Source: a phage
Length of the DNA: 555 nucleotides
Direction: 5' to 3' (one strand)
Sequence record: EF517106.1
In this document: positions 1-555 of the stretch, piece by piece
How the letters are laid out: each line of letters starts with the position of its first letter
Numbering within the stretch: the first letter of the stretch is position 1
The notes under the pieces: generated by a model
Told to the model about the DNA's origin: nothing
The model's database searches: none
Seen by the model: the letters and a program-made list of their open reading frames with translations, nothing else
Made by a program: the position numbers and the translations under genes

Positions 1-111
1 TAGAGTGCATAAAGTATGCATAATGGTGTACCTAGAGTGACCTCTAAGAATGGTGATTATATTGTATTAGTATCACCTTAACTTAAGGACCAACATAAAG
101 GGAGGAGACTC
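1..111 (+). other. Non-coding leader/intergenic region upstream of gene 19.5; in T7 it lies just downstream of the phiOR promoter, whose consensus (TAATACGACTCACTATAGGGAGA) is not in this window
   Basis: Seen: every ATG-initiated ORF here is 21 codons or shorter and lacks a Shine-Dalgarno site. Recognition: the sequence matches my memory of the T7 region between phiOR and gene 19.5. No T7 promoter consensus is present in the window on either strand. Confidence 0.5.
98..107 (+). promoter_or_regulatory. Shine-Dalgarno ribosome-binding site for gene 19.5
   Basis: Seen: AAGGGAGGAG at 98-107, with the GGAGG core at 101-105 placed 6 nt upstream of the ATG at 112-114. This is strong complementarity to the 16S rRNA 3' end at canonical spacing. 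Confidence 0.8.
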
Positions 112-261
112 ATGTTTCGCTTATTGTTGAACCTACTGCGGCATAGAGTCACCTACCGATTTCTTGTGGTACTTTGTGTTGCCCTTGGGTACGCATCTCT
201 TACTGGAGACCTCAGTTCACTGGAGTCTGTCGTTTGCTCTATACTCACTTGTAGCGATTAG
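112..261 (+). CDS. 19.5: Small hydrophobic protein of 49 aa, T7 gene 19.5 homolog; function not established to my knowledge
   Basis: Seen: ATG 112-114 to TAG 259-261 translates to MFRLLLNLLRHRVTYRFLVVLCAALGYASLTGDLSSLESVVCSILTCSD. It has a strong RBS, a basic N-terminus (R3, R10, H11, R12, R16) and a hydrophobic core (FLVVLCAALGYASL). Recognition: the length and its position 240 bp before the terminal repeat match T7 gene 19.5 as I remember it (about 39389-39538). Confidence 0.9.
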   Translation: MFRLLLNLLRHRVTYRFLVVLCVALGYASLTGDLSSLESVVCSILTCSD

Positions 262-500: not shown

Positions 501-555
501 TCTCACAGTGTACGGACCTAAAGTTCCCCCATAGGGGGTACCTAAAGCCCAGCCA
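501..555. repeat. First 55 bp of the T7-type direct terminal repeat (continues past the window end)
   Basis: Recognition: TCTCACAGTGTACGGACCTAAAGTTCCCCCATAGGGGGTACCTAAAGCCCAGCCA matches the start of the T7 genome / terminal repeat as I recall it. The 240 bp distance from the gene 19.5 stop agrees with T7 coordinates (TR-R start about 39778). The second copy is not in the window, so the repeat itself cannot be demonstrated here. Confidence 0.8.
526..538. repeat. GC inverted repeat CCCCC-ATA-GGGGG inside the terminal repeat (potential 5-bp stem, 3-nt loop hairpin)
   Basis: Seen directly: CCCCC at 526-530 and GGGGG at 534-538 are perfectly complementary around the ATA loop at 531-533. It is flanked on both sides by CCTAAAG heptamers (517-523 and 541-547). 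Any function is inferred. Confidence 0.6.

Follow-up and report, generated by a model that had tools for sequence, protein, structure and literature searches.

What does gene 19.5 do for phage T7? Deletion of gene 17.5, which encodes the only known T7 holin, delays lysis only slightly (PMC2680503). Part of the T7 lysis machinery must therefore still be missing, and gene 19.5 is a published candidate for that part in one of the best-studied viruses. The literature already contains the gene, the prediction of a membrane span and the lysis hypothesis; the function of 19.5 is a known open question, and none of this is a discovery of ours. We analysed a stretch of 555 nucleotides that carries the gene (record EF517106.1; hereafter the window) together with relatives of the encoded protein, gp19.5. 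We favour the reading that gp19.5 is an accessory lysis-timing factor and give it a probability of roughly 0.45; the link to lysis comes from published genetics, and the mechanism is one that we infer.

The window aligned over its full length of 555 bases with positions 39278-39832 of the T7 genome (V01146/NC_001604) at 98.9% identity. By this alignment it is the right end of the phage T7 genome, from a T7 variant. An ORF starting with ATG on the plus strand (112-261, with the stop TAG at 259-261) encodes a 5.4 kDa protein of 49 residues, MFRLLLNLLRHRVTYRFLVVLCVALGYASLTGDLSSLESVVCSILTCSD, and is annotated in V01146 as gene 19.5, the final CDS of that record (T7 39389-39538). An earlier note on this DNA had named the gene and placed it last before the genome end; the T7 annotation and the terminal repeat starting at position 501 agree with it. 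The features are collected in Table 1.

Table 1. Features of gene 19.5 and its surroundings in the window.
Feature	Position	Strand	Basis
Shine-Dalgarno core GGAGG, 6 nt 5' of the ATG	101..105	+	read off the sequence
Gene 19.5 CDS, 49 codons and TAG	112..261	+	ORF list, T7 annotation, NF040465, PHROG 2193, frame open in 18/18 loci
Basic N-terminal segment, codons 1-16, net +4, predicted cytoplasmic; ends H11-R12-x-T14-(Y/W)15-(R/K)16	112..159	+	charge count, column frequencies
Apolar run FLVVLCVALGYASLTG, codons 17-32, predicted signal-anchor/transmembrane helix	160..207	+	hydropathy, AlphaFold2, column frequencies, published TMHMM
Codon 23 (GTT), A23V relative to reference T7 (C to T at 179)	178..180	+	comparison with V01146
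Acidic C-terminal tail, codons 33-49, net -3, predicted periplasmic; DUF5465 part	208..258	+	Pfam, column frequencies, model
Tail codons E38; C42; C47	223-225; 235-237; 250-252	+	near-invariant
Right terminal repeat, begins TCTCACAGTGTACGG...	501-555		T7 comparison

The T7 promoter phiOR is located at 39229, 49 nt upstream of the window start, and an AT-rich leader (1-96) lies between it and the ribosome-binding site. No terminator-like site was found anywhere in the 555 nt. Transcripts from phiOR are therefore expected to continue past 19.5, as far as the genome end or over the concatemer junction. The window departs from the T7 reference at six positions, 117, 179, 312, 355, 381 and 492. All six are transitions (five C to T and one G to A), a pattern that suggests a mutagenised or laboratory-evolved T7 line. 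Among them A23V alone alters the protein. It is the sole residue change between gp19.5 of the window and reference T7 gp19.5, and it is also present in the UniProt T7 variant A9XLB6. Complete T7 records each matched the window twice, the second match being the left-end copy of the terminal repeat. Short dispersed direct repeats (CCTATAG, TAAAGAG, CTAAGGT and ACCTAAAG, at 329-467 and 516-547) fill the non-coding DNA from gene 19.5 to the terminal repeat and extend into the repeat.

The length of the ORF is by itself no evidence for a gene. Reading frames of at least 49 aa appeared in 866 of 2000 shuffles of the window when only ATG was accepted as a start and in 1412 of 2000 with any start, that is, in 43-71%. 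The signal beyond chance is conservation. Relatives of gp19.5 were found in 449 phage records by tblastn and in 243 protein clusters by profile search, and the loci examined came from T7-like phages in every case. Matches in IMG/VR were mostly T7-like contigs of roughly 38-41 kb (range 31.5-45 kb), together with two 5 kb fragments; no relative was found in 185,579 bacterial and archaeal species genomes, taken as one genome per species. The window protein matched the NCBIfam model NF040465 (T7_gp19.5) with 86.7 bits against a cut-off of 33, PHROG 2193 with an E-value of 5.9e-25 and, over residues 31-49, the Pfam domain DUF5465 (PF17553; E 6.5e-11, 41.9 bits against a cut-off of 25). NF040465 and PHROG 2193 were matched by all 19 aligned members. 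The protein of the window is a member of this T7 gp19.5 family (NF040465/PHROG 2193/DUF5465), found at the same genomic position and with no difference of substance.

Eighteen annotated loci, representing about a dozen genera of Studiervirinae, were compared. They include T7, T3, K11, BA14, Yep-phi, AP10, SH1, fPS-53, SK1, phiEap-1 and phiPccP-1 as well as an Erwinia phage, a Dickeya phage and three Pseudomonas phages. Gene 19.5 directly follows gene 19 in 18/18 of them, flanked by phiOR and the terminal repeat wherever the record annotates these, and the same right-end gene order was seen in K11, BA14, T3, AP10, SH1, fPS-53, SK1 and others. The 19.5 frame is open in all 18 loci, whereas stops interrupt one of the alternative frames in 16 of them and the other in 17. 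A Shine-Dalgarno sequence of the AGGAG/GGAGG type stands at the same spacing in most loci and is weaker in two Pseudomonas phages. Relatives differ in length by whole codons (triplet indels), and invariant residues are encoded by varying codons: all six Arg codons occur at R12, and three codons each at T14, L18 and G26. The omega values were 0.10-0.14 in the Pseudomonas-phage clade and, in pairwise comparisons among enterobacterial phages, 0.4-1.2. Judged by these comparisons, gene 19.5 is real, protein-coding and conserved. The contrary reading, that 19.5 is a non-functional ORF kept only by its overlap with conserved cis-acting DNA, could draw on a length within chance and on the omega of 0.4-1.2 among enterobacterial phages. 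It would have to accommodate, however, an open frame with a Shine-Dalgarno sequence in 18/18 loci where the other frames are closed, 16 columns at least 90% conserved whose invariant members use varying codons, a protein layout kept at 40% identity, and an omega of about 0.1 in the Pseudomonas clade; we consider it extremely improbable. The conservation survey that the earlier note had proposed thus found a widely conserved gene with rare disruptions. That note had also left the protein without a firmly assigned function, as do the databases, which give only 'gp19.5 family protein', DUF5465 and PHROG 2193 'unknown function'. A paper of 2025 still calls the function of 19.5 unknown (PMC12153263).

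The protein is built of three parts, basic, apolar and acidic (Table 1). Residues 17-32 are the only uncharged apolar run of gp19.5 (16 aa), and the C-terminal 19 residues carry a net charge of -3. The layout is a property of the family. The N-side has a net charge of +3 to +5 in 118 of 121 sequences, the C-side one of -1 to -4 in 121/121, and the apolar run following the (Y/W)(R/K) pair measures 12-16 residues in nearly all of the 121. Under the positive-inside rule the basic flank of a membrane span is cytoplasmic. The combination of a basic N-side with an acidic C-tail therefore predicts an N-in/C-out topology for gp19.5. The hydrophobic segment is short, and its hydropathy is borderline, at about the classical threshold: the Kyte-Doolittle maximum over 19 residues averages 1.60 in the family, with 1.72 in the window protein and 1.59 in reference T7, and just 51 of 113 members reach 1.6. 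By the same measure the T7 holin gp17.5 scores 1.47, below gp19.5, and the A24D mutant of gp19.5 described below scores 1.31. An AlphaFold2 model built on the 113-sequence alignment contains helices at 2-9, 12-31 and 34-46, with low confidence (pLDDT 65). A TMHMM transmembrane segment has been published for T7 gp19.5 (PMC2680503) and a TMHMM span for gp19.5 of the T3-like phage AP5 (PMC4283147).

From these features we infer insertion, and gp19.5 is probably a membrane protein. This bears out the earlier description of a small, possibly membrane-associated protein, which the family-wide hydrophobic span and positive-inside bias and the published TMHMM calls all favour, and of a basic N-terminus, as the first 16 residues carry a net charge of +4. 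The transmembrane helix that the earlier note had drawn at residues 17-30 is right in that there is a single apolar segment; its 14 residues are short for a span, however, and the run occupies 17-32 and the AlphaFold2 helix 12-31. The three cysteines listed there (C22, C42 and C47) are all present, but only C42 and C47 are conserved. A fold search with Foldseek against BFVD returned only a family member, a 'transmembrane protein' of Pectobacterium phage Q19, the query model being small and of low confidence. The profile search of the PDB gave spurious matches only, namely TAL-effector repeats, with no stretch passing alone, and antibody leader peptides.

The leader peptides, which were matched by the hydrophobic segment of the profile, recall a different use of that segment, in which residues 1-28 would be a cleavable Sec signal, cut after G26-x-A28, and would release into the periplasm an acidic peptide of ~21 residues, carrying a disulfide between C42 and C47. 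The pieces of such a signal can be pointed to: a positive n-region (+4), an h-region of 9 residues (17-25) where 7-15 are usual, and small residues at -3 (the invariant G26) and at -1, with the Pfam domain covering the C-terminal 19 residues only. Yet the most conserved part of the family would then be the n-region motif, which is unusual for a disposable signal peptide; at 16 residues the n-region would also be long, and the modelled helix 12-31, itself of low confidence, runs unbroken across the putative site. Thr occupies -1 in a third of the members, and by the -3/-1 rule Thr at this position makes a poor signal-peptidase I site. TMHMM, too, calls a transmembrane helix here (PMC2680503, PMC4283147). 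We regard a cleaved, secreted form as quite improbable.

Column frequencies were taken from 113 aligned family sequences, and the counts of charge, run length and cysteine pairs from 121. Near-invariant in the 113 sequences are L8, H11, R12, T14, Y/W15, R/K16, F17, L18, V20, L21, G26, E38, C42 and C47. E38, C42 and G26 are each found in 112/113 and C47 in 111/113, and position 15 is Y, W or F in 113/113. Residue 37 is L, V or I in 112/113, and Leu stands at position 45 in 90/113. Positions 24 and 28 admit small residues only (A, T or S), with A in 56, T in 38 and S in 18 of the 113 at position 28. In total, 16 columns are at least 90% conserved when A/T/S, Y/W and R/K are pooled, and 12 when a single residue is required. 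Of the 121 sequences, 119 have two cysteines spaced as C-x4-C (or C-x5-C). C22, by comparison, is a peculiarity of the T7 clade (11/113). This family-wide map of invariant residues and charge layout is new here; it makes C22 irrelevant and leaves E38, C42 and C47 as the kept features. Mutable targets can now be named, namely the HRxT(Y/W)(R/K)FL motif, G26, E38 and the C42/C47 pair, along with a predicted topology.

Three further candidates in the same alignment were rejected. The helical conservation moment was matched by 2220/5000, 3419/5000 and 2893/5000 permutations, and we claim no packing face. The string nearest to the twin-arginine motif of a Tat signal peptide, (S/T)-R-R-x-F-L-K, is T14-(Y/W)15-R16-F17-L18; it never has R or K at position 15 and has no spacer before F-L in the 113 sequences. 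For a lipoprotein lipobox, L-(A/S)-(G/A)-C, T7 offers V-V-L-C22, with Leu at -1, at a cysteine that only 11/113 sequences possess.

The DNA of 19.5 is conserved in another respect. Among enterobacterial phages the dS of 19.5 is 2-6 times below that of the adjacent gene 19 (for T7 and T3, 0.23 vs 1.34; the 18 annotated loci were compared), and the non-coding flanks are 61-74% identical across genera. RNA structure was tried as the cause of the low dS and discarded, since RNAalifold found 4 pairs at -0.47 kcal/mol and folding of a single sequence gave a z-score of -0.55. The low dS could arise from cis-acting DNA, codon bias or recombination. In T3 (NC_003298) two 19.5 polymorphisms, at 37621 (L9, CTG to CTA) and at 37630 (R12, AGA to AGG), arose during laboratory pre-adaptation (PMC2696425); both are synonymous. 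As 19.5 lies in a nucleotide-conserved region involved in concatemer processing, deletion phenotypes of the gene may be cis effects, and the depressed synonymous rate is a warning to this end that is new here. Two arms of 19 nt, 79% complementary and separated by a 3-nt loop, make up an inverted repeat at 291-331. This repeat lies 30 nt past the stop codon of 19.5, with the terminal repeat about 190 nt to its right. We take it to be probably the 'M-hairpin' site implicated in T7 concatemer processing.

The gene might accordingly be read as part of DNA maturation: gp19.5 would aid concatemer processing by helping to form the M-hairpin, or the phenotypes ascribed to 19.5 would stem from the right-end DNA or its transcript. 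According to the account given in PMC2680503, Kim et al. suggested that gp19.5 helps to form the hairpin, and the original deletion, which took out 19.5 together with the adjacent M-hairpin, caused late lysis and defective concatemer processing. The location of 19.5, with the terminase gene and phiOR on its upstream side and the inverted repeat and the concatemer junction on the other, fits this reading, as do its low synonymous divergence, the similarity of the flanks across genera and the synonymous nature of the T3 laboratory-adaptation polymorphisms. A basic/hydrophobic/acidic layout with a cysteine pair is not, however, that of a DNA-processing factor, and the recurrent adaptive changes in 19.5 are missense changes at near-invariant residues. 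Invariant residues are moreover specified by varying codons, omega is about 0.1 in the Pseudomonas clade, as under ordinary purifying selection, and no conserved RNA structure was found within the gene. We judge a role in DNA maturation, in trans or in cis, to be unlikely.

Those adaptive changes come from lysis-defective phages and are the source of the lysis-timing reading. In evolved T7 without 17.5, A24D in 19.5 was the only strongly compensatory change; between otherwise matched phages it delays lysis by 2 min, and a separate lysis-defective line acquired E38G in the same gene (PMC2680503). The authors proposed 19.5 as a candidate second holin (PMC2680503). In a second passage study of a gene 17.5 deletion, A24D was already present at passage 1 and E38G appeared by passage 20, and 19.5 mRNA was up 1.7- to 4.5-fold (PMC8365609). 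The A24D of this study may not be an independent event, given its presence at passage 1. Shortly before lysis, no T7+ transcript is more abundant than that of 19.5 (PMC6938266), and a seamless deletion of the gene yields much smaller plaques and a burst of 152 vs 224 (PMC12153263). Searches of the literature turned up no relevant report on the toxicity of 19.5, its proteomics or its knock-down. The earlier note was thus right that the gene has no proven function; it had missed the published lysis-timing genetics.

Placed on the family map, both laboratory-selected substitutions, A24D and E38G, fall on near-invariant positions, an observation that is new here. They are therefore probably loss-of-function or strongly function-altering changes. 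Two aspects of the genetics weaken the lysis-timing reading. Lysis-defective backgrounds favour changes that look like loss of function, and deletion of 19.5 lowers the burst, whereas a simple lysis delay is expected to raise it. Because the genetic direction is inconsistent, the role of gp19.5 may be modulatory or antiholin-like, or may concern another membrane target.

The last of these would make gp19.5 a bitopic inner-membrane micro-protein directed at something other than lysis, for example at a protein of the host envelope or inner membrane, at the exclusion of superinfecting phages or at the protection of late infection, with only indirect effects on lysis. The strongest conservation lies in the juxtamembrane stretch on the predicted cytoplasmic side, H11-R12-x-T14-(Y/W)15-(R/K)16-F17-L18 and at E38, C42 and C47, which resembles the binding of a specific partner and not a generic pore. 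A pure lysis timer, moreover, does not predict the fall in burst from 224 to 152 on deletion, and profile searches with gp19.5 showed no holin homology. For such a target to be credible one would look for a partner or an exclusion phenotype, and none is known; PADLOC gave no match, nor did Pfam or NCBIfam give an informative one, and lysis-defective backgrounds have so far supplied all of the direct genetic signals. A target outside lysis therefore seems to us rather unlikely.

In the lysis-timing reading, which we prefer, gp19.5 would act as a single-pass (bitopic) inner-membrane micro-protein of T7-like Studiervirinae phages, its gene being transcribed late and very strongly from phiOR, which lies a short distance 5' of the window. 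The first 16 residues of gp19.5, which are basic and include the HRxT(Y/W)(R/K) motif, are predicted to remain cytoplasmic, and the stretch from about residue 12 or 17 to 31 to cross the membrane as a signal-anchor that is short and moderately hydrophobic. The acidic tail of 17-19 residues, with its invariant Glu and Cys-x4-Cys, would lie in the periplasm. So arranged, gp19.5 may shift the time at which the inner membrane is permeabilised. It would do so either as a weakly holin-like protein in its own right or as a modulator of the gp17.5 holin pathway.

How such a protein relates to known lysis proteins was examined by comparison. No described holin family was found for gp19.5 in Pfam. PHROG holin 4712 was hit at E 0.03 by only 2 of 19 members, a match that is compositional and was set aside, and hhalign of gp19.5 against the T7 holin gp17.5 gave a probability of 0.1%. 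Like gp19.5, gp17.5 (PF10746, Phage_holin_2_2, holin superfamily II) is a small late protein with one hydrophobic span, and 19.5 mutations compensate for the loss of 17.5 (PMC2680503). The two differ in charge and in location. gp17.5 ends in a basic KKANKE tail, whereas gp19.5 has a basic N-side and an acidic C-tail; unlike 17.5 (36344-36547) and 18.5/18.7 (36917-37348), 19.5 stands outside the T7 lysis cluster, about 2.8 kb from it and after the terminase gene. Typical holins likewise have a basic cytoplasmic C-tail, in contrast to the acidic tail of gp19.5, which is predicted to be outside. The best reading of these comparisons is that gp19.5 would work like a holin accessory and belongs to no known holin family.

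SAR-type antiholins and pinholins, such as T4 RI and phage 21 S21-68, have an N-terminal, weakly hydrophobic span rich in Gly, Ala, Ser and Thr that is followed by a periplasmic part, and they affect the timing of lysis more than lysis as such. By analogy, gp19.5 may be compared with them for the Gly, Ala, Ser and Thr content of its span and for its lysis-timing genetics; no homology with them was found, and its predicted periplasmic part is only about 17 residues long. A direct count gave G, A, S or T at 7 of the 16 residues of the apolar run in T7 gp19.5; the family mean of 0.37 (range 0-0.67) is a rough value, with the T7-like sequences misregistered. A second analogy is with the Pf3 coat protein and M13 procoat, which are single-span proteins inserted in the YidC manner and serve as virion structural proteins of filamentous phages. 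As in these proteins, gp19.5 would have a single span within fewer than 50-75 residues and a short acidic translocated segment, the export of which would be aided by the membrane potential. They have no sequence similarity to gp19.5, which, to our knowledge, is not a virion component. Searches for PADLOC defence systems and against Rfam returned no match and nothing meaningful, respectively.

A bolder form of the lysis-timing reading may be sketched, although we hold it to be improbable. gp19.5 would be a new kind of lysis-clock regulator unique to T7-like phages, in which the tail, its export being potential-dependent, would sense membrane energisation or, via Cys-x4-Cys, periplasmic redox, and would thereby set the firing of the gp17.5 pathway. 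The coding DNA may in addition act in cis at the genome end, and the low synonymous divergence would then be accounted for. The function of 19.5, once resolved, would help to explain lysis timing in T7-based chassis for display, synthetic biology and phage therapy. Such chassis are now often built without 19.5, with a penalty in plaque size and burst size.

Rare variant copies of the gene were also observed (P0004, P0005, P0010 and P0100 in our set). In one the stop is lost, which extends the product to 78 aa; a T7 mutant line combines G26E with S39F, a K11-like sequence has C42H, and an Aeromonas-phage-like sequence has a frameshifted C-terminus.
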